Below, piece after piece: positions 9,609 through 55,847 of a stretch of 64,000 nt of DNA. How positions within the stretch are numbered: the first letter of the stretch is position 1; the number at the start of each line of letters is the position of its first letter. The position numbers and the translations under genes were made by a program. Source of the stretch: an uncultured Bacilli bacterium (GTDB taxonomy: Bacteria > Bacillota_I > Bacilli_A > RF39 > UBA660). The stretch spans positions 66,403 to 130,402 of the forward strand of contig CAKOZD010000002.1 in assembly GCA_934131175.1 (NCBI GenBank). Direction: 5' to 3'. Below the pieces are notes generated by a model that saw only the letters and a program-made list of their open reading frames with translations, did not search any database and had not been told where the DNA came from.

Positions 9609-10982
9609 ATGGCAGAATTAACAATGGAAAAATTAGTAAATTATTGTAAACAATATGGATTTATATTCCAAGGAAGTGAAATATATGGAGGTCTTGCTAA
9701 TACATGGGATTATGGTCCATTAGGTTCAAGACTTAAAAATAGTATTAAGGATTCTTGGAGAAAAAGATTTATTCAAGAAAGACCTAATGCATATGAAGTA
9801 GATGCAGCAATTTTAATGCATCCAAGAGTTTGGGAAGCAAGTGGTCATGTTGGAAGTTTCTCTGATCCACTAATTGATTGTAAGAGTTGTAAAACAAGAC
9901 ATAGAGCAGATAATTTAATAGATGACTTTGATGAGAATGCTCATGCTGATGGAATGAGTCAAGAAGAAATGATGGACTATATTAGAGAACATAAAGTTCC
10001 ATGTCCAAAGTGTGGTAAGAGTGATTATACTGATATTAGACAATTTAATTTAATGTTTGAAACTCATAGAGGGGTTACTGAAGATGGTAAAAACAAAGTT
10101 TATTTAAGACCTGAAAATGCACAAGGAGAGTATGTTAACTTTTTAAATGTACAAAGAACTATGCGTGCTAAGTTACCATTTAGTATAGGACAAATTGGTA
10201 AAGCATTTAGAAATGAAATTACACCTGGAAACTTTACTTTTAGAACAATTGAATTTGAACAAATGGAATATCAAACTTTCTGTCGTGAGGGAACAGATAG
10301 TGAACTTTATGCATATTTTAAAGATTATGCTAAGAAGTATTTTATGGATTTAGGAATTAGTGAAGATAAATTAAGATTCCATGATCATGAAAAATTAGCT
10401 CATTACGCTAAAGAAGCATGTGATATTGAATATAAGTTCTCATTTGGATGGGGAGAAATTAATGGTACTCATAATAGAACTGATTATGATTTAGGAAGAC
10501 ATCAAGAGTATTCTGGTAATTCTCAAGAATATTTAGACCCAGAAACTAATGAAAAATTTATTCCATATATAATTGAATCTACTGTTGGATGTGATAGATT
10601 AACTCTTGCTATTTTAGATAATAGTTATACTGAGGAGACACTTGAGAACGGAGATACTCGTGAAGTTATGAAGTTTATTCCATATCTTGCTCCATATAAA
10701 GTATGTGTATTGCCTCTTGCTAAGAAATATCATAGTGAAAAGGCTGCAGAAATTTACAATATGTTAAGTAAAAACTTTATGACTAGTTATGATGAATCTG
10801 GTAGTATTGGTAAGAGATATAGAAGAGCAGATGCTTGTGGTACACCATGGTGTTTAACGGTTGATGATGAAACTATTAACAATGGTACAGTTACTTTAAG
10901 AGATAGAGATACTATGGAACAAATTACTTTAAAAGTTGATGAAGTAGTTGACTATGTAAATGAAAGAATTAAATTTCAATAA
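9609..10982 (+). CDS. glyQS: glycine--tRNA ligase, single-chain alpha2 type
   Basis: Class II aaRS motifs, 457 aa. N-terminal MAELTMEKLVNYCKQYGFIFQGSEIYGG..WDYGPLG is characteristic of bacterial/archaeal GlyQS. Confidence 0.85.
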   Translation: MAELTMEKLVNYCKQYGFIFQGSEIYGGLANTWDYGPLGSRLKNSIKDSWRKRFIQERPNAYEVDAAILMHPRVWEASGHVGSFSDPLIDCKSCKTRHRADNLIDDFDENAHADGMSQEEMMDYIREHKVPCPKCGKSDYTDIRQFNLMFETHRGVTEDGKNKVYLRPENAQGEYVNFLNVQRTMRAKLPFSIGQIGKAFRNEITPGNFTFRTIEFEQMEYQTFCREGTDSELYAYFKDYAKKYFMDLGISEDKLRFHDHEKLAHYAKEACDIEYKFSFGWGEINGTHNRTDYDLGRHQEYSGNSQEYLDPETNEKFIPYIIESTVGCDRLTLAILDNSYTEETLENGDTREVMKFIPYLAPYKVCVLPLAKKYHSEKAAEIYNMLSKNFMTSYDESGSIGKRYRRADACGTPWCLTVDDETINNGTVTLRDRDTMEQITLKVDEVVDYVNERIKFQ

Positions 10983-18774: not shown

Positions 18775-18814
18775 ATATTTACAAAAAAAATAGTATTGTG
18801 TTATAATACGTTTA

Positions 18815-19030
18815 TCGACTTTGATTAAGAAGTAGTAATATAATGATTATTTTTAGAGAGTCTGTGGTTGGTGGAAACAGATAATATAGTTATATGAATT
18901 CGTCTTAGGAGTTCTTATTAATAGTAAGCGTAATTCTTGCGTTAAGAGATTTGAGTGTGTAGTAAATAACTATGAATTAAGGTGGTACCGCGAATAGTCG
19001 TCCTTAAATTTATAGTTATTTTTTTTATTA
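18815..19030 (+). ncRNA. T-box riboswitch leader (Phe-specific candidate) upstream of pheST
   Basis: Extended -10 TGTTATAAT at 18799-18807. AGAGAG Stem I element. GAATTCG contains a TTC Phe specifier candidate. Conserved AAGGTGGTACCGCG at 18979-18992. Terminator helix plus TTTTTTTT. Confidence 0.6.
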
Positions 19031-23393: not shown

Positions 23394-23474
23394 TTTAGTT
23401 CTTTTTTTCTTGTTTTATTTATTTTAATGATTTATTATTATGGTAAGGTGAGTGTGCCTAGGAAGGAGATATTA

Positions 23475-25196
23475 ATGGAAAAAGAAGAAGTTGCAATAAA
23501 TGATGAAGAAAAAAATGTTGCAGAAGAAACACAAGATGTAGATGTAAAAGATGAGAATGGTTTAGATGAAGAAGAGAAAAAAGTAGTTGAGAAAGCTAAA
23601 GAACTTGATGGTGAAGTTTCTAGAAAACAAAAGAAAAATAATAAGAAAAAAATAATTATTATAGTCATTATTATTTTGATTTTAATTATTGGAGGAGTAT
23701 TTGGTTATTTTTATTTCTTTAACGGAAAAGATAATAAAAAAGAACAAGTATCTAATGAAAAGAAAGAGTATAAGTCTGCTTATAGAATGGAAGGTAATGA
23801 TTTATCAGACTTTGACCTTTATTTCTTACAACTTGAGAATGCTAAAAAGAATGCAATTTATAGTCCTTTATCTATAAAGTATGCACTTGCAATGTTACAA
23901 GAAGGAACTAAGGGTGACAGTAAGGCTCAAATTAATGCTTTAATTGGAGATTATAAATCTAAGAAATATACTAATAGTGAACATTTATCACTTGCTAATG
24001 CTATGTTTATAAAAAGTAGTATGAAGGATGCAGTGGTTTCTGATTATACAAATAATTTATCTACTAAGTATGGAGCAGAAGTTATTTATGATAATTTTAC
24101 AACTGCTACTAATGTTAATAATTGGATTAGTAATAAGACTCTAAATTTATTAAATAATGTTTTAAAAGATACAGATGTTAATAATCTTGATTTCTTACTT
24201 GTTAATTCACTTGCTATTGATATGGATTGGAACTATAAGTTACAATGGGAACAAAGTGATAGTAAAGTAGATGAAAAACGTTATTCAGTAGACTATGCTC
24301 ATGAAAAATATGAAGACTCTGTTCCTCTAATTCAAGATAAGAGTGAGTTCAGTACAATATCATTTAATAATGGAGCAGTACAGGCAAAAGCTGCACAGAT
24401 TGGAGCATCTATTAATAATTATGATATTATTAAGGAGCTTGGTGAAGATAACATTAGAAAGTTTATTGAAGAAAAATATAGAGAGTATTTAAAAGACCCT
24501 CAATGTGGTGAAGAAAATACAGAAGAGCAAATAAAGAGTTTTGTTAATGAGTATATTAAAACTATTGGTGAAAATTATAAACAAATAGATTCATCAACTG
24601 ATTTCTTATTCTATACAAATGATGATGTTAAAGTATTTGCTAAAGATTTAAAAACTTATGATAATACTACATTACAATATGTTGGAATTATGCCTAATAA
24701 AGTTTCTTTAGAAAAATTTATTAATAAGGCTAATGCTAAGAGTATTTCTAAACTTATAAGTAGTTTGAAACCTCTTGAATTAAGTAGTTTTGAATATGGT
24801 AAAGTTTATAAGATTAAAGGATATATTCCATTCTTTAAATATGATTATGAACTAAAATTAGATAAAGATTTAAAATCTCTTGGTGTAAAAGATATATTTG
24901 ATGCATCAAAAGCAGATTTATCTGGTATGATGAAAAATAGTAGTGGAGAGTTTATTAGTAAAACTATTCATAAAGCAAATATTGATTTTTCTAATGATGG
25001 TATTAAAGCAGCTGCTGTAACTGTTGTAGGTGGAATGGGTGCTGCATCATGTCCTTCATTTGATTATGAATATGATGTACCTGTTGAAGAGATTGATTTA
25101 ACTTTTGATAAACCATTTATGTATGTAATTAGAGATAAATCAACTGGAGAAGTTTGGTTTACTGGTTCTGTTTATGAACCTCGTGATAATTATTAG
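23475..25196 (+). CDS. serpin (serine protease inhibitor) with acidic N-terminal region and a TM anchor
   Basis: YSPLSIKYALAMLQEGTKGDS..INALIG serpin N-terminal signature. Hinge/RCL GIKAAAVTVVGGMGAAS. C-terminal FDKPFMYVIRD...VWFTGSVYEP. ATG 23475 has a GGAAGGAG SD. K-rich stop-transfer and hydrophobic stretch IIIIVIIILILIIGGVFGYF. Confidence 0.7.
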   Translation: MEKEEVAINDEEKNVAEETQDVDVKDENGLDEEEKKVVEKAKELDGEVSRKQKKNNKKKIIIIVIIILILIIGGVFGYFYFFNGKDNKKEQVSNEKKEYKSAYRMEGNDLSDFDLYFLQLENAKKNAIYSPLSIKYALAMLQEGTKGDSKAQINALIGDYKSKKYTNSEHLSLANAMFIKSSMKDAVVSDYTNNLSTKYGAEVIYDNFTTATNVNNWISNKTLNLLNNVLKDTDVNNLDFLLVNSLAIDMDWNYKLQWEQSDSKVDEKRYSVDYAHEKYEDSVPLIQDKSEFSTISFNNGAVQAKAAQIGASINNYDIIKELGEDNIRKFIEEKYREYLKDPQCGEENTEEQIKSFVNEYIKTIGENYKQIDSSTDFLFYTNDDVKVFAKDLKTYDNTTLQYVGIMPNKVSLEKFINKANAKSISKLISSLKPLELSSFEYGKVYKIKGYIPFFKYDYELKLDKDLKSLGVKDIFDASKADLSGMMKNSSGEFISKTIHKANIDFSNDGIKAAAVTVVGGMGAASCPSFDYEYDVPVEEIDLTFDKPFMYVIRDKSTGEVWFTGSVYEPRDNY

Positions 25197-27821: not shown

Positions 27822-28280
27822 ATGTATAAAGTATATGATGATTATGATAATAAGGGTAAGGTTCTTGATAAAACTGAATTTATGGATATTAATGGTTTTT
27901 TGATGGGCGGAAAGAAAAAGATTTTTTCTGTTGCTGGAAGTGAAATAAGAGAGATTAAAGTAGTTAGTAAAAATCTTGCTAATCCGATAGTCTCATCTAA
28001 AGTAATGCATAAATATAGTCAATTAGTTAATTATTTAACAGAAGTTTTGATTGAAGATGATGGAGATGATTCTGATGGAAGTTATCGTGAGGCACTAAAT
28101 CAAATAGAAAAATTCAGATTAATGGTAAAAAATGAATATCGTAATTTTTTAACTAGAAAAGAGTTAGAACACATGTCTAAACAATTAGTTATTTTGCAAA
28201 AAGAATTAAACAATCGTATACTAGAGATACATAATAGTTATATGGAAATGCTTAATAAGGAAAATGGTAGAGGTAGATAG
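27822..28280 (+). CDS. hypothetical protein
   Basis: 152 aa, no recognisable motif. Follows trmD, as the ylqD-like genes do in some Firmicutes. Confidence 0.35.
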   Translation: MYKVYDDYDNKGKVLDKTEFMDINGFLMGGKKKIFSVAGSEIREIKVVSKNLANPIVSSKVMHKYSQLVNYLTEVLIEDDGDDSDGSYREALNQIEKFRLMVKNEYRNFLTRKELEHMSKQLVILQKELNNRILEIHNSYMEMLNKENGRGR

Positions 28281-28364
28281 CCTCTTTTTTTCTATAAATT
28301 TAAATATTATTTTAATAAAGTATAAATTAATGATATAATTTGATTAGAATATGGAGGTGTTCTT

Positions 28365-28928
28365 GTGAAATATAGTTCTAAAAGTAAATTTAGAAAAATT
28401 ATTAGTGTTTCATTTTTATTTGTACTTGTCCTTGCTCTTTCGATATCATTTATATCTTTCGATAACCCAACAGTTTTAGAGACTTCTATTAATAGAACGA
28501 ATATTTTTGATGTACATATTGATAATGTAAGTGCTAAAAGTAAGGGGAGTGCTACTTATACTTTACCTGTAGTTGATAATATGTCACTTGAAAAATTTAA
28601 TGTAGTTATTAATAAACCAGGTGATGCAGTTACTTTTTATTTTACTGTAACTAATAAAGGAGATATTGCTGCAATATTAAAGAATATTAATAAAAGTAAA
28701 TTTATCTGTTCTGGTAATAATAGTATTGATAATAAGAATGTTTGTGAAAAGTTAACTTATAAATTAAGATATGCTAATTCTAACAATATTAAAGAAAAAG
28801 ATGTATTACAAGTAGGAGAAGTTGCTAATGTAGAATTAGAAATTAAGTATCCTACCAAATCATCTAATATTACATCATCTGTAATGGTTTCTAATTTAGA
28901 TTTTTCTTTAGAATATTATCGAAAATAA
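28365..28928 (+). CDS. signal-anchored hypothetical secreted protein
   Basis: GTG start with a GGAGGTG SD. N-terminal TM. Beta-rich extracytoplasmic domain. Followed by a terminator. Confidence 0.4.
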   Translation: MKYSSKSKFRKIISVSFLFVLVLALSISFISFDNPTVLETSINRTNIFDVHIDNVSAKSKGSATYTLPVVDNMSLEKFNVVINKPGDAVTFYFTVTNKGDIAAILKNINKSKFICSGNNSIDNKNVCEKLTYKLRYANSNNIKEKDVLQVGEVANVELEIKYPTKSSNITSSVMVSNLDFSLEYYRK

Positions 28929-28952
28929 AAGTTTAATTGAACTTTTTTTTTT
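28926..28952 (+). terminator. rho-independent terminator
   Basis: AAAGTT-TAATTG-AACTTT hairpin plus TTTTTTTTT. Confidence 0.5.
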
Positions 28953-29024
28953 AATAAAGATATGCTATACTTGTTTATATAATATGATAGGGTGTTTGGA
29001 ATAGTGTAGGTGGTGAATTACTTT

Positions 29025-30260
29025 ATGAGTAATAATAAATTTAATTTTGTAGATGATGTAGATAGTATTAAAGATAATTCTCATGTTAGTGATGAGAAAG
29101 AAAAAGATGAAAAATCAAATATAGAAAAAATTGATAATAAAGAAATAAAGAATGATTGTAAAACATTAAAAGTAAAAGAGAAAAGTGTTGTAGAAGAACC
29201 TAAAAAAGAAAATAGTAATGATAATAATTCAATAAAGGTAGAAAAAAGGGTTTATTTTAGTTTTGAGATGCGTGTTGCTCTTATGCTTCTATTTATTATT
29301 ATTTTATTTGGTTCAACTTGTTTTTTGATGGTAAAAGCATTTAATTTAGATAAAAAAGATAAAATTACATATAGTGAAGTTGGTAATATAAAGTATGATG
29401 TATGCTTGAATGACAATGATTATTATTCAAAAACTTGTTTACCAGAAGGACGTCAATATCTTTCTTCTATTGTAAAGAATATTCCTACTAATTTTTCTTA
29501 TAATGTTAATTTTTCAGAAGATATAAAATATAATATTAAGTATTATATAGTTGCGAAAATAAAAATATTTGATATTAATGATAATAGTAAAGTTTTATAT
29601 GAAGATGAGGAATTACTAGTACCTAGTAAAAGTTTAAATGGAAATAGTAGTAAAATATCAATAAATGAAAATACTTCTATTGATTATTCTTCATATGAAA
29701 ATTATGTAAATAGTTATAAAGAAAATTATTCTGTAGAGGCTAATGCTTCTCTTAATGTTTCATTATATGTAGATGATTCTAGTGAAAGTAGAGTCGTTTC
29801 TTCTATGAATATTCCAATTGGTGAGAAAACATTTAGTATTAATTCAGATAATGTTAATGTAAAGAATAATGAAGTTATAATTAACGATGATACATGGAAT
29901 AATATTAATAGTATATATGCATTCTTAGGAGCGTTTTTAAGTTTAATTTGTTTAATATTTATTGTTAAATTGACTAGATTTGTAAGTAAGTCTATTACTA
30001 AGAAGAATAAGTATCAAACTGAACTTTTAAATATTTTAAGAGATTATGATAGAGAAATAGTAATTGCTAGAAATGGATATGAGAGTAATCTTGTTAAAAA
30101 TATTGTAAAAGTTGAGAGTTTTAAAGAACTTCTTGATGCGAAAGAAAATTTAGGAAAACCAATAATCTATTCTAAAGTTAATTCTGTTAAGAGTGAATTT
30201 ATTGTAGAAGATGAATGTACGTTATATAAATTTATTATGAAAGAAGCTGACTATTCTTAA
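29025..30260 (+). CDS. hypothetical bitopic membrane protein (large N-terminal domain, central TM, C-terminal cytoplasmic domain)
   Basis: ATG 29025 with a GGTGGTGA SD. TM helices around residues 95-115 and 300-320. No recognisable catalytic motif. Confidence 0.4.
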   Translation: MSNNKFNFVDDVDSIKDNSHVSDEKEKDEKSNIEKIDNKEIKNDCKTLKVKEKSVVEEPKKENSNDNNSIKVEKRVYFSFEMRVALMLLFIIILFGSTCFLMVKAFNLDKKDKITYSEVGNIKYDVCLNDNDYYSKTCLPEGRQYLSSIVKNIPTNFSYNVNFSEDIKYNIKYYIVAKIKIFDINDNSKVLYEDEELLVPSKSLNGNSSKISINENTSIDYSSYENYVNSYKENYSVEANASLNVSLYVDDSSESRVVSSMNIPIGEKTFSINSDNVNVKNNEVIINDDTWNNINSIYAFLGAFLSLICLIFIVKLTRFVSKSITKKNKYQTELLNILRDYDREIVIARNGYESNLVKNIVKVESFKELLDAKENLGKPIIYSKVNSVKSEFIVEDECTLYKFIMKEADYS

Positions 30261-30933: not shown

Positions 30934-31443
30934 ATGGATAAAAAGGAAGTTAATAATAAATTAGATATAAAAGAAGTTATTATGTATATATTAATTATTA
31001 TTGTCATTTTACTAATAAAGAAATTTGTTATATCTCCAATTAGAGTAAATGGAGCAAGTATGAATGATACATTAAATAATGGAGATATAATGATTATGAA
31101 TATTATTGGATACAAGTTTCAAGATATTAAAAGATTTGATATTGTAATTGTAGATGAGGGTAGTGAATTAATAATAAAAAGAGTTATTGGACTACCTGGT
31201 GAAACAGTAGAATATCGTGATAATAAATTATATATTAATGGTAAAAAAATGAATGATAAGTATGGAAGTAATAAAACGGATGATTTTAGTTATAAAGTTC
31301 CTAAGGGCGAGTACTTTGTTTTAGGAGATAATCGTGGTAATTCAATGGATAGTAGAGTATTTGGAAGTTTTTCTAAGAGTAAGATTTTAGGTAAGACAAA
31401 ATTAACTGTTTTTCCATTTAGTAGATTTGGTAATAAGGAGTAG
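30934..31443 (+). CDS. lepB: signal peptidase I
   Basis: RVNGASM (Ser nucleophile), KRVIGLPGE (Lys), GDNRGNSMDSR boxes. N-terminal TM. Confidence 0.8.
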   Translation: MDKKEVNNKLDIKEVIMYILIIIVILLIKKFVISPIRVNGASMNDTLNNGDIMIMNIIGYKFQDIKRFDIVIVDEGSELIIKRVIGLPGETVEYRDNKLYINGKKMNDKYGSNKTDDFSYKVPKGEYFVLGDNRGNSMDSRVFGSFSKSKILGKTKLTVFPFSRFGNKE

Positions 31444-50637: not shown

Positions 50638-52692
50638 ATGAAAATAAATAATAAAGGTTTTTCATTAGTTGAATTACTGGCTGTTGTTGCAATTCTTGCT
50701 GTTTTAGCAACTGTTGGTATTTCTGCATATTCAAAGTATGTGGAAGATTCTAAGAGAACAATGTATGCAAAAATGGCAAAAGATTATATAAATGAGGCTA
50801 GAGTTCAAATTTCTAGTAAGGAAATCAAAAAGATTTCTAATCCAACGTATTCATATTATATTTCTATTGAGAAACTTTCAGATAATGATCCATTAGAACC
50901 ATCTCCGTTTGGTAAGTGGAATGAAGCTTATGTTATTTTTGTTCCTGGAAAAAACGGACAAGACAGATATTATTTTGCTAGTATCGATGAAGTTGGTTGG
51001 ATGATTGATGGAGTAGAAGAGTCTAAAATTACTAAAAATAGTGTTAAGCATGTTACTGATAAAGATTCATTAGATAAGAAATTTAAAGGTGATGGTACTG
51101 AAAAGATAATTACTATTAATGGAGATGGTACTAGAGGTGAGTCTAAAGAAACTATTGCTTGGACAATTTCTGAAACTAAGAAATGTTTTAGTTTTACTAA
51201 TTTAAGTAATGGTACTATAAGACTTAATTATTATAATCTTGCATGCGGTAAAGATGTTACTATACCAACACAAGTTGGTGGTAAAAAAGTAACTGAAATT
51301 TATACATCTACATTTGATAGTATGGGTATTACTAGTGTTAATTTACCTAGTACTTTAACTAGTATTGGGTCTCGTGCATTTATTAGTAATAATCTTACTT
51401 CTGTTAATATACCGAGTGGTTGTAAAAATATTGGGTCTGAGGCATTTTATAGTAATAAAATAAGTAGTGTTAAAATACCTAGTACTGTTTCAACAATTGG
51501 ACAAAGAGCTTTCTATAATAATAAAATAAGTGGTTATATATATAAGATTGTTCCAAATAAAGATGCAACTATTGGTTCATGTGCGTTCTGTAAAAATAAT
51601 GTATATGGTGCTGGATTTACATTTAGTGGTCAAGCAGTAAAGGGTTATATTGGAGATTTTTCTGAATTTGCTGATAAGAGGTTTATAATTCCTACAGAAA
51701 CTCCAGATGGAAAACCAGTAACTGAAATTAGTGGTTCAGCATTTTATGGATTACCTTTAGGTGGTTATACAGTTGTTATTCCAAGTACTGTTACAAAAAT
51801 TGGGGGTTCGGCGTTTAGTTTTTCAGGAATTAGTGCAGTAAACTTACCAAAAGGTTTAAAAACGATAGAGGGTTCAGCATTTTATTCATGTAGTTTAACA
51901 TCACTTGATATTCCTGATACTGTAACATCAATTGGTGGACTTGCTTTTAATAGAAATAGTGTTAGTGCATCAAGTAAAGATTTATGGATATATAGAAGAA
52001 CGGCTAGTGGAATAGATTATTCAACAATTATTGGATATTCAGGAGCAAATAGAACTAATTTAGTTATTCCAACAACTGCGGGTCCTAAAAAGACAACTCT
52101 TACAACTATTGGAGATAATGCTTTTAGATATTTGGACTTAAGAGGAAGTTTGGTAATACCAAGTACTGTTTCATCATATGGTTCACTTGCATTTAATCTT
52201 AATTATTTATCAAGTATTGATCAAGGATATGATACAAAAGGAAATAAAGTTGTATCTACTGATGGTATTATATATAAACGTACAGGAAGTGGAAAAGTAG
52301 ATACCTCATATGTATACTCTTTTGCAAATAATAATAATGCTCATCCTGTTATACCAAGCGGTGTTAAAACTATAGGACCATATGCATTTTATTATTCTAG
52401 AATTCAAAGCATAAGTTTACCAGAGGGACTTACTACTATTGGAAATAATGCTTTTGAACTTGCAGATTTACGTGGTACTGTTACAATTCCAAGTACAGTA
52501 ACATCTATTGGAAGTAATGCATTTTATAAAGCAAAGACATGGACATCATTTAATTATTATATGACGAAGATAGTAAACAAAACTAATCGTTCATTTGATT
52601 GGAAAAGTATAACTGGAGGTCCAAGTACTGCAAATTTTGTAACTGGTACTGTAGAAAATTGGTATGGAGATATTGAAGTAGTTAGGGGATAG
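50638..52692 (+). CDS. type IV prepilin-like protein fused to a BspA-type leucine-rich-repeat (LRR_5) domain (modular pilin/adhesin candidate)
   Basis: Class III signal MKINNKG|FSLVELLAVVAILAVLATVGI (Gly-1, Phe+1, Glu+5). Pilin-like head shared with the gene at 53046. Then at least 12 repeats of about 23-25 aa of the type (V)T.IG..AF....LTSV.IPSTVT.IG..AF. Confidence 0.6.
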   Translation: MKINNKGFSLVELLAVVAILAVLATVGISAYSKYVEDSKRTMYAKMAKDYINEARVQISSKEIKKISNPTYSYYISIEKLSDNDPLEPSPFGKWNEAYVIFVPGKNGQDRYYFASIDEVGWMIDGVEESKITKNSVKHVTDKDSLDKKFKGDGTEKIITINGDGTRGESKETIAWTISETKKCFSFTNLSNGTIRLNYYNLACGKDVTIPTQVGGKKVTEIYTSTFDSMGITSVNLPSTLTSIGSRAFISNNLTSVNIPSGCKNIGSEAFYSNKISSVKIPSTVSTIGQRAFYNNKISGYIYKIVPNKDATIGSCAFCKNNVYGAGFTFSGQAVKGYIGDFSEFADKRFIIPTETPDGKPVTEISGSAFYGLPLGGYTVVIPSTVTKIGGSAFSFSGISAVNLPKGLKTIEGSAFYSCSLTSLDIPDTVTSIGGLAFNRNSVSASSKDLWIYRRTASGIDYSTIIGYSGANRTNLVIPTTAGPKKTTLTTIGDNAFRYLDLRGSLVIPSTVSSYGSLAFNLNYLSSIDQGYDTKGNKVVSTDGIIYKRTGSGKVDTSYVYSFANNNNAHPVIPSGVKTIGPYAFYYSRIQSISLPEGLTTIGNNAFELADLRGTVTIPSTVTSIGSNAFYKAKTWTSFNYYMTKIVNKTNRSFDWKSITGGPSTANFVTGTVENWYGDIEVVRG

Positions 52693-52695
52693 AAT

Positions 52696-53022
52696 ATGAA
52701 AAATAAAAAAATTATTGTTATTGTAGTTTTTATAATTTCACTTATATTAATAGGAACAGGAATATTTCTTAGTTTAAAAGGAGACTATAATACTAAGAAT
52801 GAAAATAATGAAATAGATAATGGTGAAGTAATAGGAGATTATAATATTAATTATTATAATAGTGTAGATGAGGCAATTAACTATATTAAAGCTATAAGAA
52901 ATACAGAAAATGTTAATATTGTTAATGAAGACGAAAATAACTATTATATAGAAGTTAGTGTTGATAATAGTACTTTTAATTATGTTTATTCTAAAGTAGA
53001 TAATACTTTAACAGATGAATAA
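52696..53022 (+). CDS. small signal-anchored protein (possible non-canonical minor pseudopilin)
   Basis: 108 aa. N-terminal TM IIVIVVFIISLILIGTGIFL. Sits 3 nt after the upstream stop, between two prepilin genes. Confidence 0.35.
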   Translation: MKNKKIIVIVVFIISLILIGTGIFLSLKGDYNTKNENNEIDNGEVIGDYNINYYNSVDEAINYIKAIRNTENVNIVNEDENNYYIEVSVDNSTFNYVYSKVDNTLTDE

Positions 53023-53045
53023 TAGTATATTTAGGATGTGATAAT

Positions 53046-53648
53046 ATGTTTAGATTAAATAATAAAGGTTTTTCATTGATTGAACTTTTGGCAGCAATGG
53101 TTATTCTAATTATTTTGTTTTCATCAATTATGGTTAGTACAGGAGCAATAATTAGAAATTCTAATAAAAATGCATTTATTATTAATGCTAAGGCTTATGC
53201 TAATGCATTAAGAGAAAATAGTTATCAAGATGATTTAAGCATTGATGAAGAAGATAGCGTTTTCTTTATTGACCCTAAATATTTAGATATGGATAGTACT
53301 AATTATGAAAGTCCTTTTGGAGAGTATGTAGTTAATTATTTAGTTGTAACATACGATGGTGATAAATTTCACTACTTTTATGTAGCATATGATGATGAAG
53401 GTTGGGGGATTAGGTTAGGAAAAGAACTTACTAATTTAAAAAAGTCTGATGTTGAATTCTTAGATGATGATTTTAATGAAGAAATTTTTGAATATAAAAA
53501 ATTTAATAATTCAAATAAAAATTGTTCTAAACTTAAAAGTTATTTAATAAACGTAAATAATTCATCTGATCCGTTTAGTGATAAAACAAAAGCTGTATTT
53601 GTTGATAAAGAAGGAGAATTTACTACTGTTGATTTAAGTGGTTGCTAA
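53046..53648 (+). CDS. type IV prepilin-like protein (minor pilin/pseudopilin candidate)
   Basis: MFRLNNKG|FSLIELLAAMVILIILF class III signal peptide. The head domain is paralogous to the N-terminal 150 aa of the LRR fusion (ESPFGEYVVNYLVV..YFYVAYDDEGWGI vs PSPFGKWNEAYVIF..YYFASIDEVGWMI). Confidence 0.6.
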   Translation: MFRLNNKGFSLIELLAAMVILIILFSSIMVSTGAIIRNSNKNAFIINAKAYANALRENSYQDDLSIDEEDSVFFIDPKYLDMDSTNYESPFGEYVVNYLVVTYDGDKFHYFYVAYDDEGWGIRLGKELTNLKKSDVEFLDDDFNEEIFEYKKFNNSNKNCSKLKSYLINVNNSSDPFSDKTKAVFVDKEGEFTTVDLSGC

Positions 53649-53649
53649 G

Positions 53650-53680
53650 TAGATAGACTTTTCTATCTATTTTGTTTTCT
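53650..53680 (+). terminator. terminator-like hairpin after the pilin gene
   Basis: AGATAG-ACTTTT-CTATCT hairpin plus ATTTTGTTTTC. Confidence 0.45.
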
Positions 53681-53751
53681 TTAATAAAAAAATGTTAAAA
53701 AACTTATAATAAAAGTGATATAATTTTATTATGATAGAGGAGGATTTTTAT

Positions 53752-54900
53752 ATGGATTTAAATTATGACTCTAACCAATATGAAATAGGTGAAGGTGTTA
53801 TGTCTTCTATTAAAAGTTCAATAGATACTAGTAATTCATCAATAAAAAGTGATTTTGATAAAGTTATTAGTGTTGCGAATGATTATAAAATTAATTTGTC
53901 AAATACTATAAAACTTGATGATTTACAAAGTGATTTTTCTTCACTAAGTACTTATTTAGATGATGTTTCTAAAAGTGCACTTTTAGCTAAATCTGCAATT
54001 GATACTTATTCTAAAAGTGACGGTACAGAAGAAGACAGGCAAATATTGTTATCTGTTCTTGGAGCAAGTATAAGTACTTCTCAACCTAATGCTTTTGTTA
54101 GAACTGTTTATACTGGTTTAATGGGTGGAGCAATGTTTGGAGAAGGTTTTCTTAGTTTTTTTGAAGATGTTGGAGATTGTGCCATTGTTTTAGGTAGTGG
54201 AGTGGTTGGATTATTTGATAAAAAGAAAGCTCAAGAAATGAGAGATTTTGCATCTAAAAATTTATCTAAGGATTTATTTGAAAATAATTCTACATTTGAA
54301 AAAATCAATAAATATAGTTATTTTGATAAAAATAGTGTTTATGCTGATGTATTTAAATTAGGTGGAAAGGCTGCTGCTGCAGTAACTGTTGGTAGTGTTG
54401 CATCTAAGACTGTTAGTAGTTTTACAAAAGCAAAATCTACTGCTGTTGCATCTAATATTAGTACATTTGGAAGTGATACAAGAGAAAATTTGAGTAGAGG
54501 AATGGGATTAAAGAGTTCTTTAATGTTTGCTGGAGCAAGTCTTGCTACGACACATGCAGTTAATAAGTATCTGTCACCTGCCCTTGCATCTAAAGTAGGA
54601 GAAACAGTTGCTGGTACAAAGGTTGGAAATGTTATTAGAGGTGCTGATACAGTAGCATCTAGTGTTTTTGGAAGTAATGTTGATAATGTAAAAAGTGTTG
54701 CTCAAACTGCGGTTGATTACTCTATTAAAGAGACAAAATCAAAAACAGATAATTTAGTATCTGGTGATGGAAATGAAAAAACTACAAATGACGCGGTTGC
54801 TCAAGATGCTGCAAATCTAGGAATAGATACTGCTAAAACAACAGGTGAGCAAGTAATTGAAAAATCTATAGAAAAGGCTGTAGTTGATGCAGTGTTATAA
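53752..54900 (+). CDS. Gly/Ala/Ser/Val-rich hypothetical protein resembling the post-LXG linker region of T7SS polymorphic toxins (no toxin domain recognised)
   Basis: ATG 53752 with a GGAGG SD. SIKSDFDKV and TGLMGGAMFGEGFLSFFEDVGDCAIVLGSGVVGLFD, then GGKAAAAVTVGSVASKTVSSFTKAKSTAVAS. The composition mirrors the B. subtilis YeeF segments FIKSDFQKL...GFKGVAVGLYDSGKDAVVGLWD...VGTVVTSIVGTKGVGAVSKTGAAAKVTTKVKTAASK, as I recall that sequence. Confidence 0.35.
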   Translation: MDLNYDSNQYEIGEGVMSSIKSSIDTSNSSIKSDFDKVISVANDYKINLSNTIKLDDLQSDFSSLSTYLDDVSKSALLAKSAIDTYSKSDGTEEDRQILLSVLGASISTSQPNAFVRTVYTGLMGGAMFGEGFLSFFEDVGDCAIVLGSGVVGLFDKKKAQEMRDFASKNLSKDLFENNSTFEKINKYSYFDKNSVYADVFKLGGKAAAAVTVGSVASKTVSSFTKAKSTAVASNISTFGSDTRENLSRGMGLKSSLMFAGASLATTHAVNKYLSPALASKVGETVAGTKVGNVIRGADTVASSVFGSNVDNVKSVAQTAVDYSIKETKSKTDNLVSGDGNEKTTNDAVAQDAANLGIDTAKTTGEQVIEKSIEKAVVDAVL

Positions 54901-54915
54901 GAGGAGGTTAATATT

Positions 54916-55203
54916 ATGAATAATTTTTTACCAGTAGGAAGTGTAGTTTTATTAAAAAATGGTAAGAAACCAATATCGATTATTGGTTATAAGATGTCTT
55001 CTTTAGATAATAAATATTTAATGAAAGGTCATGAAACTACATCTAATAAAGTTTATGATTATTGTGCAGTACTATATCCAGAAGGGTTAATTAGTAGTGA
55101 CAACTTTATTTTGTTTGATAAAGAAAATATTGAAACTGTTATTTTCAAAGGGTATGAAAGTGATGATTGCAAGGAATTATTTGATTTTTTAAGTAAAGAA
55201 TAG
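54916..55203 (+). CDS. DUF4176-like small protein
   Basis: 95 aa. MNNFLPVGSVVLLKNGKKPISIIGYK fits the N-terminal L/PLGSVV.LK.G...LMIIGR pattern I associate with DUF4176, a family I recall being linked to Firmicutes T7SS/LXG loci. From memory, not verified. Confidence 0.4.
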   Translation: MNNFLPVGSVVLLKNGKKPISIIGYKMSSLDNKYLMKGHETTSNKVYDYCAVLYPEGLISSDNFILFDKENIETVIFKGYESDDCKELFDFLSKE

Positions 55204-55211
55204 GTGATAAT

Positions 55212-55847
55212 ATGGGATTTGTTAATATGAAAGAGTATTCTGAAAATAATTTACCTAAAGCAGGTAGTGCATCAGAATATGTTGTTTGTGAAAGTATTAG
55301 TAATTATCATCCTTTTGATATAAGTGGAGCATTTGATGCAATAGAGAGTGCTTGTAGTGAAGTTATTAGTAGTTCTAATGATTACTGTAATGATTTGAAA
55401 GATAAGATAACTTCTTTAGGAGACGAGTGGGGGCAAAAGTTTATCTCAATAAATGAAAAAGATATTGGTATAGTAGTTCCAGAGCAGTTTCAAGATGATT
55501 ATGATAATATTACAAGTCATATACAAGAACAAGTTGATAGATGTAAAACACTAGCATCAGATGTTAGTAATAGATTAGATGAAGTAAAATTATATGTGCA
55601 AAAGTTAGAAGAAAATTTGAAAACTTTTAATGATTTACGTAATAAAAAAAGTTCACTTGAAAGTAGTATTTCAAATTGTGAACGAAGTATAAGTGCTGAG
55701 TATTCTAAAGAACAAGTAAATAGTTCAGTTATTTCTAATTTGCAAGTTAAAAAGAATGGTTATGAAACAGAACTTGCAGGTGTTAATTCGAAAATATCTC
55801 AGTATAATATGATTAATGAACCAGATGGACAATGGATAGTTGCATAA
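55212..55847 (+). CDS. hypothetical coiled-coil protein with a W-x-G segment (SLGDEWGQKF)
   Basis: 211 aa. Predicted helical/coiled-coil C-terminal half. SD AGGTGA. Confidence 0.35.
   Translation: MGFVNMKEYSENNLPKAGSASEYVVCESISNYHPFDISGAFDAIESACSEVISSSNDYCNDLKDKITSLGDEWGQKFISINEKDIGIVVPEQFQDDYDNITSHIQEQVDRCKTLASDVSNRLDEVKLYVQKLEENLKTFNDLRNKKSSLESSISNCERSISAEYSKEQVNSSVISNLQVKKNGYETELAGVNSKISQYNMINEPDGQWIVA

Follow-up and report, generated by a model that had tools for sequence, protein, structure and literature searches.

How is a large leucine-rich repeat (LRR) module presented by an uncultured gut bacterium of the class Bacilli with AT-rich (low-GC) DNA, and could a type IV pilus be its carrier? 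This question is raised by three adjacent genes in a 64-kb window (the whole stretch of DNA that was analyzed, 64,000 nucleotides), two of which begin like prepilins and one of which continues into a long series of BspA-type LRRs. Modular pilins, in which an additional module is appended to a pilin, currently explain how type IV filaments, simple as they are, have gained so many functions. To our knowledge, detailed work on the modular pilins of a monoderm bacterium covers only two, both of them from Streptococcus sanguinis, and we know of no adhesins from the uncultured gut Bacilli, which are abundant in metagenomes.

A three-gene operon with two pilin genes

The open reading frames were confirmed at 50638-52692 (684 aa), 52696-53022 (108 aa) and 53046-53648 (200 aa), all on the + strand and separated by gaps of 3 nt and then 23 nt. 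The features of the locus, with the evidence for each, are as follows.

50638..52692, + strand: gene of the 684-aa modular type IV pilin (prepilin plus BspA-type LRR module); ORF, Pfam N_methyl and LRR_5, TIGR02532, more than 113 full-length homologues at 41-52% identity, AF2 pLDDT 90.8
50638..50658, + strand: leader peptide MKINNKG, aa 1-7, predicted prepilin-peptidase cleavage after Gly7; alignment A1
50659..50814, + strand: alpha1 helix, aa 8-59, with Phe+1 and Glu+5 (E12); AF2 helix aa 10-59, E12 invariant (115/115)
50815..51057, + strand: globular pilin head, aa 60-140, four-stranded antiparallel sheet
51058..51183, + strand: linker, aa 141-182, beta-hairpin and short helix, lower-confidence model (pLDDT 58-71 for aa 141-180)
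51184..52689, + strand: BspA-type LRR_5 solenoid, aa 183-684, 13-14 repeats, invariant Cys183/Cys203 at the N-cap and a conserved C-cap (…TGTVENWYGDIEV); Pfam, regex, PDB and Foldseek
52696..53022, + strand: gene of a 108-aa signal-anchored small protein, putative accessory; ORF, matches no Pfam family
53046..53648, + strand: gene of a 200-aa small pilin with a head of the same family as the 684-aa pilin; leader MFRLNNKG then FSLIE…; N_methyl, TIGR02532, head homology
53647..53682, + strand: terminator-like hairpin with an 11-bp stem, a 4-nt loop and a U-rich tail; RNA folding

The hairpin 3' of the third gene has a folding energy of -10.2 kcal/mol (z=-3.95 against shuffles) and emerged by direct folding, as a consensus terminator scan requiring at least three G-C pairs found no terminator, having missed this hairpin because its stem is AT-rich. 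A promoter scan was uninformative (28 sites against 24.7 expected) and no promoter is claimed. The stretch from 50638 to 53648 is a three-gene operon closed by a terminator-like hairpin.

The product of the middle gene, described in the first-pass annotation as a 108-aa signal-anchored protein between two pilins, does carry an N-terminal hydrophobic anchor, MKNKKIIVIVVFIISLILIGTGIFLSL, and matched no family in Pfam. Its homologues flank the LRR pilin in contigs of the same species (L001-L003) and lie on either side of it in the next-closest lineage (L095/L096); the protein is conserved in the two closest lineages only.

Prepilin signal peptides on both pilins

The N-terminus of the 684-aa protein reads MKINNKG, then FSLVELLAVVAILAVLATVGISAY, which is a short hydrophilic leader ending in Gly, followed by Phe+1 and a hydrophobic tract containing Glu+5, the makeup of a class III signal peptide, in which the leader's last residue is Gly or Ala, +1 is Phe or Met and Glu+5 lies in about 21 hydrophobic residues. 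This protein scores 27.8 bits against Pfam N_methyl (PF07963, aa 4-26, cut-off 21.2) and 27.8 against NCBIfam TIGR02532 (IV_pilin_GFxxxE, cut-off 16.3), and the 200-aa protein scores 27.7 bits and 21.5, respectively, so that the class III (prepilin) signal peptides first read from the letters of both genes are recovered above cut-off by both models. In an alignment of 115 full-length relatives at 41-52% identity (alignment A1), Glu+5 is invariant (115/115) and nearly all sequences have Gly-1 (113/115) and Phe+1 (112/115), behind leaders of 5-13 aa that are rich in K, R and N. This conservation contradicts an ordinary Sec anchor, which had been named at the outset as an outcome that would overturn the prepilin assignment. 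In addition, a relaxed G-F-x-x-x-E regular expression applied to all six frames of the 64-kb window returned only the two pilin N-termini and one internal false positive, and the confinement of the motif to these two N-termini indicates that it is not a composition artefact.

Two further positions bear on assembly, as Gly+14 and Pro+22 bracket the segment of alpha1N that is melted in assembled pili, a feature established by pilus cryo-EM work. Gly+14 is found in 84/115 of the LRR-pilin relatives and Pro+22 in 86/115, and in the wider family that shares the head the corresponding counts are 100/105 and 95/105. Both pilins of the window have Ala/Ser at +14 and Ile/Val at +22 instead of Gly and Pro, which counts against the pilus-subunit reading.

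A pilin module followed by an LRR solenoid

The AF2 model of the 684-aa protein (pLDDT 90.8) consists of a complete head (aa 1-140), a linker (aa 141-182) and then the LRR solenoid. Within the head, an alpha1 helix of about 50 residues backs a pilin-type antiparallel sheet, giving the "lollipop" fold of pilins. The first-pass annotation had left it to structure prediction to say whether the helix is followed by a pilin fold with the solenoid appended, and this is the order of modules in the model. The linker is the least conserved region of the family, with a mean pairwise identity of 33%.

Pfam LRR_5 (PF13306) scores 199 bits on this protein (E=2.8e-59, cut-off 27.7) over four stretches, and 13 regular LRR units were counted by regular expression along with one irregular unit at aa 306-320, in agreement with the minimum of 12 BspA-type repeats given earlier. 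The C-cap is 67% identical within the family. Sequence matches of the module in the PDB are 4fd0, 4gt6, TpLRR and PcpA, with a best E of 2e-20, and the top Foldseek matches (4gt6, 4fs7, 4cp6, 6mlx) are all BspA-type LRR structures, which together with the PF13306 score above gathering places the module among BspA-type LRR proteins. Its resemblance is to the surface or adhesin LRR proteins PcpA and TpLRR and, more weakly, to HupY/LrrG. The repeat family and solenoid fold are held in common with Tannerella forsythia BspA, pneumococcal PcpA (4cp6), Treponema pallidum TpLRR (6mlx), group B Streptococcus HupY/LrrG and the gut-bacterial structural-genomics proteins 4gt6, 4fs7 and 4fd0. These are surface-exposed proteins of host-associated bacteria, several of them documented adhesins, and they are anchored by Sec signal peptides, lipoprotein anchors, choline-binding domains or wall anchors. 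The 684-aa protein differs from them in its anchor, which is a type IV pilin module.

With an IPR012902 motif and LRR_5 grafted after a complete pilin module, the protein is a modular pilin in the sense of Raynaud et al. (2021), and the modular architecture proposed from the sequence is borne out by N_methyl and LRR_5 scores above cut-off and by the AF2 model. The accompanying remark that no LRR-module pilin has been characterized stands in part. Literature on BspA with prepilins and on PF13306 with PF07963 yielded no characterization, but the novelty was overstated, as the architecture was catalogued in 2021 (PMC8179133). In Dataset S1 of that study, IPR012902-IPR026906 (N_methyl plus BspA-type LRR) is the seventh most frequent modular-pilin architecture, represented by 18 proteins plus 6 carrying two LRR copies, and is described as having "no clear function" (PMC8179133). 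The domain architecture of this entry is identical to that of the 684-aa pilin, and its 18 proteins may belong to the same family of about 680 aa; the entry is a database count, without structure, family delineation, genomic context, taxonomic placement or a link to machinery. The TANB77 "conserved pilin" (PMC11680825) was considered as a characterized relative and rejected, since it belongs to an unrelated Tad-type (TadA/CpaF) pilus of Clostridia.

A shared head with many modules

The heads of the 684-aa and 200-aa proteins are homologous (28% identity over 142 aa, E=6e-13), which upholds the earlier suggestion of a paralogous pilin head common to both genes. The 200-aa protein matches positions 2-167 of the head HMM (E=2e-46) and is the head alone; it ends at a cysteine whose counterpart in the LRR pilins is Cys183 (alignment A2). 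When the head profile was compared with PDB sequences, PilA, PilE1 and geopilin matched across the alpha1 helix (alpha1N) only, and the globular head therefore falls, by sequence, in no solved or Pfam-defined pilin family.

An exhaustive search with the head HMM returned 501 clusters at 50% identity with E<1e-30, spanning lengths of 139-1229 aa. N_methyl was present in all 105 top matches scanned, and the C-terminal modules among these included LRR_5 in 23, DUF285 in 14 and DUF6273 in 7; further modules on the same head were CBM_2, GDSL lipase, lectin, M26 peptidase, RCC1 and metallophosphatase. Judged by these matches, the head serves the whole lineage as a carrier module, and many different domains have been joined to it. 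A word-indexed search with aa 1-213, which gave 5 matches, had hinted at an orphan head, and this was overturned by the full-length and exhaustive HMM searches; the few matches reflect a limit of word indexing for a head that diverges more quickly than the LRR module.

The LRR-pilin design is thus genuine and occurs commonly among these bacteria, and public records name the family members "leucine-rich repeat protein" only. Their genes often stand in tandem arrays of up to five copies. In a five-copy array (L014), identity is 78-93% among the heads and 50-65% among the LRR modules, a pattern that fits a head held to the filament of one species and binding modules that have diversified. MAG CAKPHH01 contains the five-copy array, and head-family pilins are also present on the complete MAG chromosomes OZ006981.1 and JBAMOY010000001.1. 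Between species, the LRR module is 53-67% identical and the head 36-40%, and this greater conservation of the LRR module is unlike a simple "variable adhesin on constant anchor" model.

Assembly machinery in relatives

Pfam scans of 48 ORFs of the window detected no PilB, PilC or PilD, as the first-pass annotation had stated of the window, and tblastn with PilB, PilT, PilC and PilD queries gave no match. For every LRR pilin examined, the surrounding 10 kb were likewise free of machinery genes. In a close relative (L093/L094, with PheS 81% and PheT 75% identical to those of the window), a T2SSF platform gene (pilC) adjoins a gene for a bifunctional A24 prepilin peptidase (pilD; A24_N_bact plus Peptidase_A24). 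The same T2SSF-A24 peptidase pair is found in L046/L092, 7 kb from an RCC1 pilin of the head family. In an Erysipelotrichia MAG (L069), a PilB/GspE-type (T2SSE) ATPase stands next to small pilins with N_methyl, and the head HMM matches four of these pilins; this ATPase was found by tblastn, having been missed by a regular-expression screen for secretion ATPases. NCBIfam models score the relatives' platform at 300.8 bits as PilC/GspF versus 146.6 as ComGB, and their ATPase at 520.9 bits as PilB/GspE versus 265 as ComGA. By these gene assignments, the machinery exists in the lineage, on contigs of relatives, and may share a genome with an LRR pilin.

Proposed function and alternative explanations

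We judge it reasonably probable that the locus encodes accessory type IV pilus subunits, in which the LRR pilin is a tip-displayed adhesin with the small pilin as its partner. The motif, the fold, the conservation of the family, its modularity, the operon structure and the machinery in relatives are each directly supported, and from them we infer the processing, filament incorporation, tip location, pairing and adhesin role that follow. Prepilin peptidase would remove the leader of 7 residues, cutting behind Gly7, and would N-methylate Phe8. At first, the hydrophobic alpha1 helix, which includes Glu+5, would hold the 684-aa protein in the membrane; it would then dock the protein into the helical core of a filament built by a machine of the PilB/PilC type, whose genes would lie in another part of the genome. 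As a modular minor pilin with a solenoid of about 500 residues hanging off a small head, the protein would most plausibly sit at the filament tip, where the LRR surface may serve as an adhesin whose ligand is of host or microbial origin. Its partner is probably the co-transcribed small pilin of 200 aa, by analogy with S. sanguinis, in which PilA stabilizes PilC within a tip complex. Such a partner is not universal, as in L095 the LRR pilin is flanked by two small anchored proteins and there is no small pilin.

The pilins of S. sanguinis are located within its pil locus, whereas the LRR-pilin genes lie away from any pil machinery cluster and form tandem paralogue arrays of up to five copies. 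The S. sanguinis modular pilins PilB, with a vWA module, and PilC, with a lectin module, are tip adhesins, and PilC is stabilized by the small minor pilin PilA (PMC8179133; Shahin et al. 2023, PMC9934059). Compared with PilB and PilC, the module described here is a BspA-type LRR solenoid of 13-14 turns and about 500 aa. Sequence similarity to the S. sanguinis pilins does not extend beyond alpha1N. Minor pseudopilins of the GspI/EpsI/XcpV type, which form tip complexes of type 2 secretion systems and type IV pili, are also among the closest known systems.

The strongest alternative, which we regard as unlikely, is that these are prepilin-peptidase-dependent surface proteins that never polymerize, using the class III signal for targeting, processing and membrane anchoring only and being held by alpha1 or loosely assembled at the membrane, as in substrate-binding proteins of the archaeal "bindosome". 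In favour of this alternative, the genes are dispersed, with housekeeping genes as neighbours and assembly genes never adjoining them, and a head found on so many modules, including enzymes (GDSL lipase, metallophosphatase, M26 peptidase), looks like a general signal for surface display; several copies per genome, up to five in tandem, would also be too many bulky subunits for one tip at once. However, a complete and conserved pilin head is kept beyond the signal peptide, Gly+14 and Pro+22 are largely conserved in the family, the small pilins of L069 with heads of the same family lie beside a PilB-type ATPase, and the homogenization of heads within a genome suggests a fit to a common polymer.

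A role for both pilins as minor pilins of a Com pseudopilus, divergent proteins of the ComGD/GE/GF/GG type serving DNA uptake and not adhesion, is considerably less probable. Com pili are the commonest type 4 filament among Bacilli, to which the organism belongs, and the N-terminus of the 200-aa protein has weak NCBIfam matches to ComGE, ComGF and ComGD (E=4.5e-6 to 7e-3). These matches cover the alpha1N motif only, and their scores are far under the cut-offs (ComGE 19.8 and 26.7 versus 49, ComGF 17.7 versus 80, ComGD 16.7 versus 70), which together with the genomic location places the proteins outside the ComGD, ComGE, ComGF and ComGG families. In addition, the platform and ATPase of relatives score much higher as PilC/GspF and PilB/GspE than as ComGB and ComGA, no comG-like operon was seen and comGA/comGB were not found nearby, and we know of no role in DNA binding for a 500-aa BspA-type LRR. 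Finally, an ordinary Sec-dependent, signal-anchored LRR surface protein bearing a prepilin motif by chance would accord with the modest N_methyl score (27.8 bits), precomputed annotations that call the motif "weak" in several homologues and the plain LRR names in public records, but is scarcely credible given a charged Glu+5 inside the hydrophobic segment of all 115 LRR pilins and all 105 head-family proteins, 98-100% conservation of Gly-1 and Phe+1, a 50-residue helix that backs a pilin-type sheet, and a motif carried by only two pilin N-termini in the 64-kb window.

Implications for uncultured gut Bacilli

The LRR pilins form a large and well conserved family among the uncultured Bacilli that live in human and animal guts, and records now named "leucine-rich repeat protein" could receive the fuller annotation of modular type IV pilin. 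Near-identical heads with diverging LRR modules in one genome are a natural experiment on the co-evolution of carrier and effector. A broader and more tentative reading, which we hold possible but doubtful, is that the head is a display platform, with these small-genome bacteria hanging dozens of effector modules on one type IV pilus scaffold whose machinery genes are dispersed, and with the tandem LRR arrays as an exchangeable repertoire of tip adhesins. The modules counted in that reading are BspA-type LRR, DUF285, DUF6273, RCC1 propellers, CBMs, lipases and peptidases. If it is true, the tip-adhesin repertoire could control how the bacteria attach to the mucosa of their host or to partner microbes, on which latter, speculatively and by analogy with RF39 auxotrophy, the bacteria carrying these genes may depend nutritionally. 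If the tip-adhesin model proposed for this locus is true, the LRR pilins would be prime candidates for the attachment of these bacteria to host or partner cells.

Genomic setting of the pilin genes

The window is AT-rich chromosomal DNA (about 22-31% GC outside the tRNA array) in which almost every gene lies on the + strand; it includes rimM-trmD-rplS, lepB, ylqF and an RNase HII-family gene (PF01351). Ordinary features include a 12-tRNA array at 309-1424, which accounts for a GC content of 37% in the first 2 kb, and a T-box leader upstream of pheS-pheT at 18812-19008. A 589-aa protein (23427-25196) has a serpin domain in its C-terminal part (PF00079, E=5e-43), preceded by a long N-terminal extension whose start is hydrophobic; serpins are uncommon in bacteria. 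A 416-aa DUF5305 protein, preceded by two small family-less ORFs, is encoded near a signal peptidase I gene (27822-30260 and 30934-31443); DUF5305 is often found with SipW/TasA-like fibre loci. The genes under study are three consecutive ORFs:

50638-52692, + strand, LRR pilin gene (684 aa), ORF call
52696-53022, + strand, gene for a 108-aa protein, ORF starting 3 nt past the preceding stop
53046-53648, + strand, small pilin gene (200 aa), ORF after a 23-nt gap

Every one of the three is preceded by a Shine-Dalgarno-like sequence, and a terminator-like hairpin lies 3' of the third (-10.2 kcal/mol, z=-3.95). A promoter scan gave no candidate for the unit above background. We infer that the three ORFs form a single transcription unit.

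Prepilin motif and family conservation

The first-pass annotation had described class III signal peptides on two genes sharing a paralogous pilin head, separated by a gene for a signal-anchored 108-aa protein, and this arrangement was confirmed. The 684-aa and 200-aa proteins score 27.8 and 27.7 bits against Pfam N_methyl (cut-off 21.2) and both pass NCBIfam TIGR02532, while a relaxed prepilin pattern run over six frames of the whole window matched only these two N-termini and one internal false positive. Alignment of their heads (142 aa, 28% identity, E=6e-13) shows homology, and the 200-aa protein consists of the head alone, ending at a cysteine aligned with Cys183 of the LRR pilins. At its N-terminus the 108-aa protein carries a hydrophobic anchor; the small family of which it is part has no counterpart in Pfam or NCBIfam.

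A full-length search recovered more than 113 LRR-pilin homologues of about 665-692 aa (41-52% identity over 98-100% of the query), nearly all with both PF13306 and PF07963 precomputed, in addition to one same-species protein at 97% identity. These originate from gut metagenomes (ENA, Logan), with a few from NCBI MAGs named 'Bacilli bacterium', where the only annotation they have is 'leucine-rich repeat protein'. As judged from these sequences, the LRR pilin is a member of a conserved family and not a one-off fusion. In the 115-sequence family alignment, leaders are 5-13 residues long and, relative to the predicted cleavage site, Glu+5 is present in 115/115 sequences, Gly-1 in 113/115 and Phe+1 in 112/115. 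An ordinary Sec anchor, the refuting alternative named in the first-pass annotation, would be very hard to reconcile with a charged residue always kept within the membrane helix. Gly+14 and Pro+22 occur in 84/115 and 86/115 sequences; the window's own two pilins instead carry Ala/Ser and Ile/Val at +14/+22. In assembled pili, Gly+14 and Pro+22 flank the alpha1N segment that melts, as established by pilus cryo-EM.

Predicted structure

An AlphaFold2 model of the LRR pilin built on the family alignment was confident (pLDDT 90.8) and places an alpha1 helix before a small sheet, with the LRR solenoid appended:

aa 10-59, helix
aa 71-127, small four-stranded sheet
aa 141-182, linker of lower confidence
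after the linker to the C-terminus, LRR solenoid, with Cys183 and Cys203 of its N-cap invariant in the family

Pfam LRR_5 scores 199 bits (E=2.8e-59), and 13 regular units plus one irregular unit bear out the earlier count of at least 12 BspA-type repeats. By sequence and Foldseek, this part resembles the BspA-type LRR structures 4gt6, 4fs7, 4fd0, 4h09, PcpA (4cp6) and TpLRR (6mlx), with a weak match to the HupY/LrrG adhesin model. The head profile matches solved pilins in sequence along alpha1 only, and the globular head falls outside all Pfam families.

The head as a carrier of many modules

An exhaustive HMM search with a head profile of 21 sequences, including the 200-aa paralogue, returned 501 clusters (50% identity) at E<1e-30 and 3060 at E<1e-10, in proteins of 139 to 1229 aa. 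N_methyl was present in all 105 top matches scanned, in which the C-terminal modules were LRR_5 (23), DUF285 (14), DUF6273 (7), FNIP (6), LRR_EndoS (5), CBM_2 (3) and single occurrences of a GDSL lipase, a Laminin_G_3 lectin, an M26 peptidase N-domain, a metallophosphatase and others. Many head-borne modules have no Pfam family. RCC1 propellers are also found on head-family pilins, with examples in L046 (10001-10927, 308 aa) and L092 (19081-20514, 477 aa); L046 is labelled 'uncultured Muribaculaceae' despite Bacilli-like content, so this MAG was probably mis-binned or mislabelled. By these profile matches, the head is a lineage-wide carrier for many different modules.

Genomic context in relatives

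The LRR pilin genes of relatives are surrounded by housekeeping genes and are present singly or in tandem sets of up to five (L004-L007 have three, L008 and L015 two, L014 five), often with other N_methyl proteins downstream, and no assembly genes were found within 10 kb of them in the loci examined. The three-gene arrangement is kept in same-species contigs L001-L003. L095/L096, the next-closest lineage at about 50% identity, have 108-aa homologues on either side of the LRR pilin (9636-9962 and 12053-12421 in L095) and no small pilin. The family of the 108-aa protein adjoins LRR pilins in both of the nearest lineages; the protein itself could be chaperone-like or an assembly accessory.

Within the five-copy array of L014 (4507-15292; Hadza gut MAG CAKPHH01), heads are 78-93% identical and LRR modules 50-65%, whereas between species the pattern is reversed (head sheet 40%, LRR module 53-56%, C-cap 67%). 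The pattern within the array suggests gene conversion or homogenisation limited to the pilin head. Within one genome, the need to fit the filament of that species would homogenise the heads, and the LRR paralogues would be older types, separately conserved.

Immediately downstream of the pilin operon, at 53731-55847, three genes encode a 389-aa protein with a Gly-rich hydrophobic middle and no Pfam family, a member of the DUF4176 family, which has links to type VII secretion, and a coiled-coil protein of 211 aa; these genes are fragmented in same-species contigs L002/L003. In L044 (6442-9238), homologues of the first two are found a few kilobases 3' of head-family pilins, and L012 (10780-11466) has a DUF4176 homologue in the same relative position. 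The genes may represent a variable islet carrying a cassette of the polymorphic toxin/immunity type, and their association with pilins may be coincidence.

Assembly machinery

Consistent with the first-pass annotation, Pfam scans and tblastn found no PilB, PilC or PilD in the window. In L093/L094, from a close relative as shown by PheS and PheT identities of 81% and 75%, a T2SSF platform protein (479 aa) adjoins a bifunctional A24_N_bact/Peptidase_A24 protein (254 aa) no more than 3 kb past pheS-pheT, and an N_methyl protein of 837-841 aa lies about 7 kb beyond. The same pair is 7 kb from the RCC1 pilin in L046/L092. This pilC-pilD unit (L093/L094 10001-13580, L046 920-5596, L092 10001-14677) occupies a constant site between divergent yqfQ and dnaB/dnaI-like replication genes, with no attached ATPase or pilin. 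In an Erysipelotrichia MAG (L069), a 397-aa T2SSE ATPase gene is divergent beside five small N_methyl pilins, four of which match the head HMM. Filament genes therefore appear dispersed, not clustered, and these separate contigs of relatives argue that the lineage has type 4 filament machinery scattered round the chromosome. By NCBIfam score, the relatives' platform and ATPase are nearer PilC/GspF and PilB/GspE than ComGB/ComGA.

Proposed mode of action

The steps proposed here follow established type 4 filament biology (PMC9934059, PMC8179133). The alpha1N segment would insert the prepilin into the membrane, an A24 peptidase would cut off MKINNKG with methylation of Phe8, and a PilB/PilC machine would take up the subunit via its alpha1 helix. 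With a solenoid of roughly 500 aa, too large to fit into the body of the filament, the LRR pilin would most likely cap the tip, possibly complexed with the co-transcribed small pilin by analogy with S. sanguinis PilA-PilC, in which PilA stabilises PilC (PMC9934059, PMC8179133). Binding to a ligand, whether host or microbial, would fall to the LRR surface.

The leading alternative is surface display that needs the peptidase but no polymerisation, as with the archaeal bindosome. The scattered pilin genes, the enzyme modules on the same head in relatives and the several copies in one genome would all suit it; we nevertheless consider it unlikely. A role in a Com pilus is poorly supported and distinctly improbable. 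A plain Sec anchor, likewise poorly supported, can be set aside almost entirely given the invariant Glu+5 inside the membrane helix.

The modular-pilin interpretation is supported in all testable aspects of sequence and predicted structure, and the locus product is in architecture, and would be in function, a modular type IV pilin sensu Raynaud et al. 2021. The earlier view that no LRR-module pilin has been characterised stands, none being found in the searchable literature, but the architecture itself was already catalogued (Raynaud et al. 2021). IPR012902-IPR026906, the latter entry being the BspA-type LRR region, is the 7th most frequent modular-pilin architecture (18 proteins, plus 6 with two copies; PMC8179133, Dataset S1), placed among modules with 'no clear function' (PMC8179133). 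What is new here is the delineation of a large family of roughly 680 aa in uncultured gut Bacilli, a high-confidence structural model of the LRR pilin, the finding of dispersed pilC-pilD and pilB loci among relatives, the contrast between head and LRR module in tandem arrays, and the view of the head as a lineage-specific carrier for many modules.
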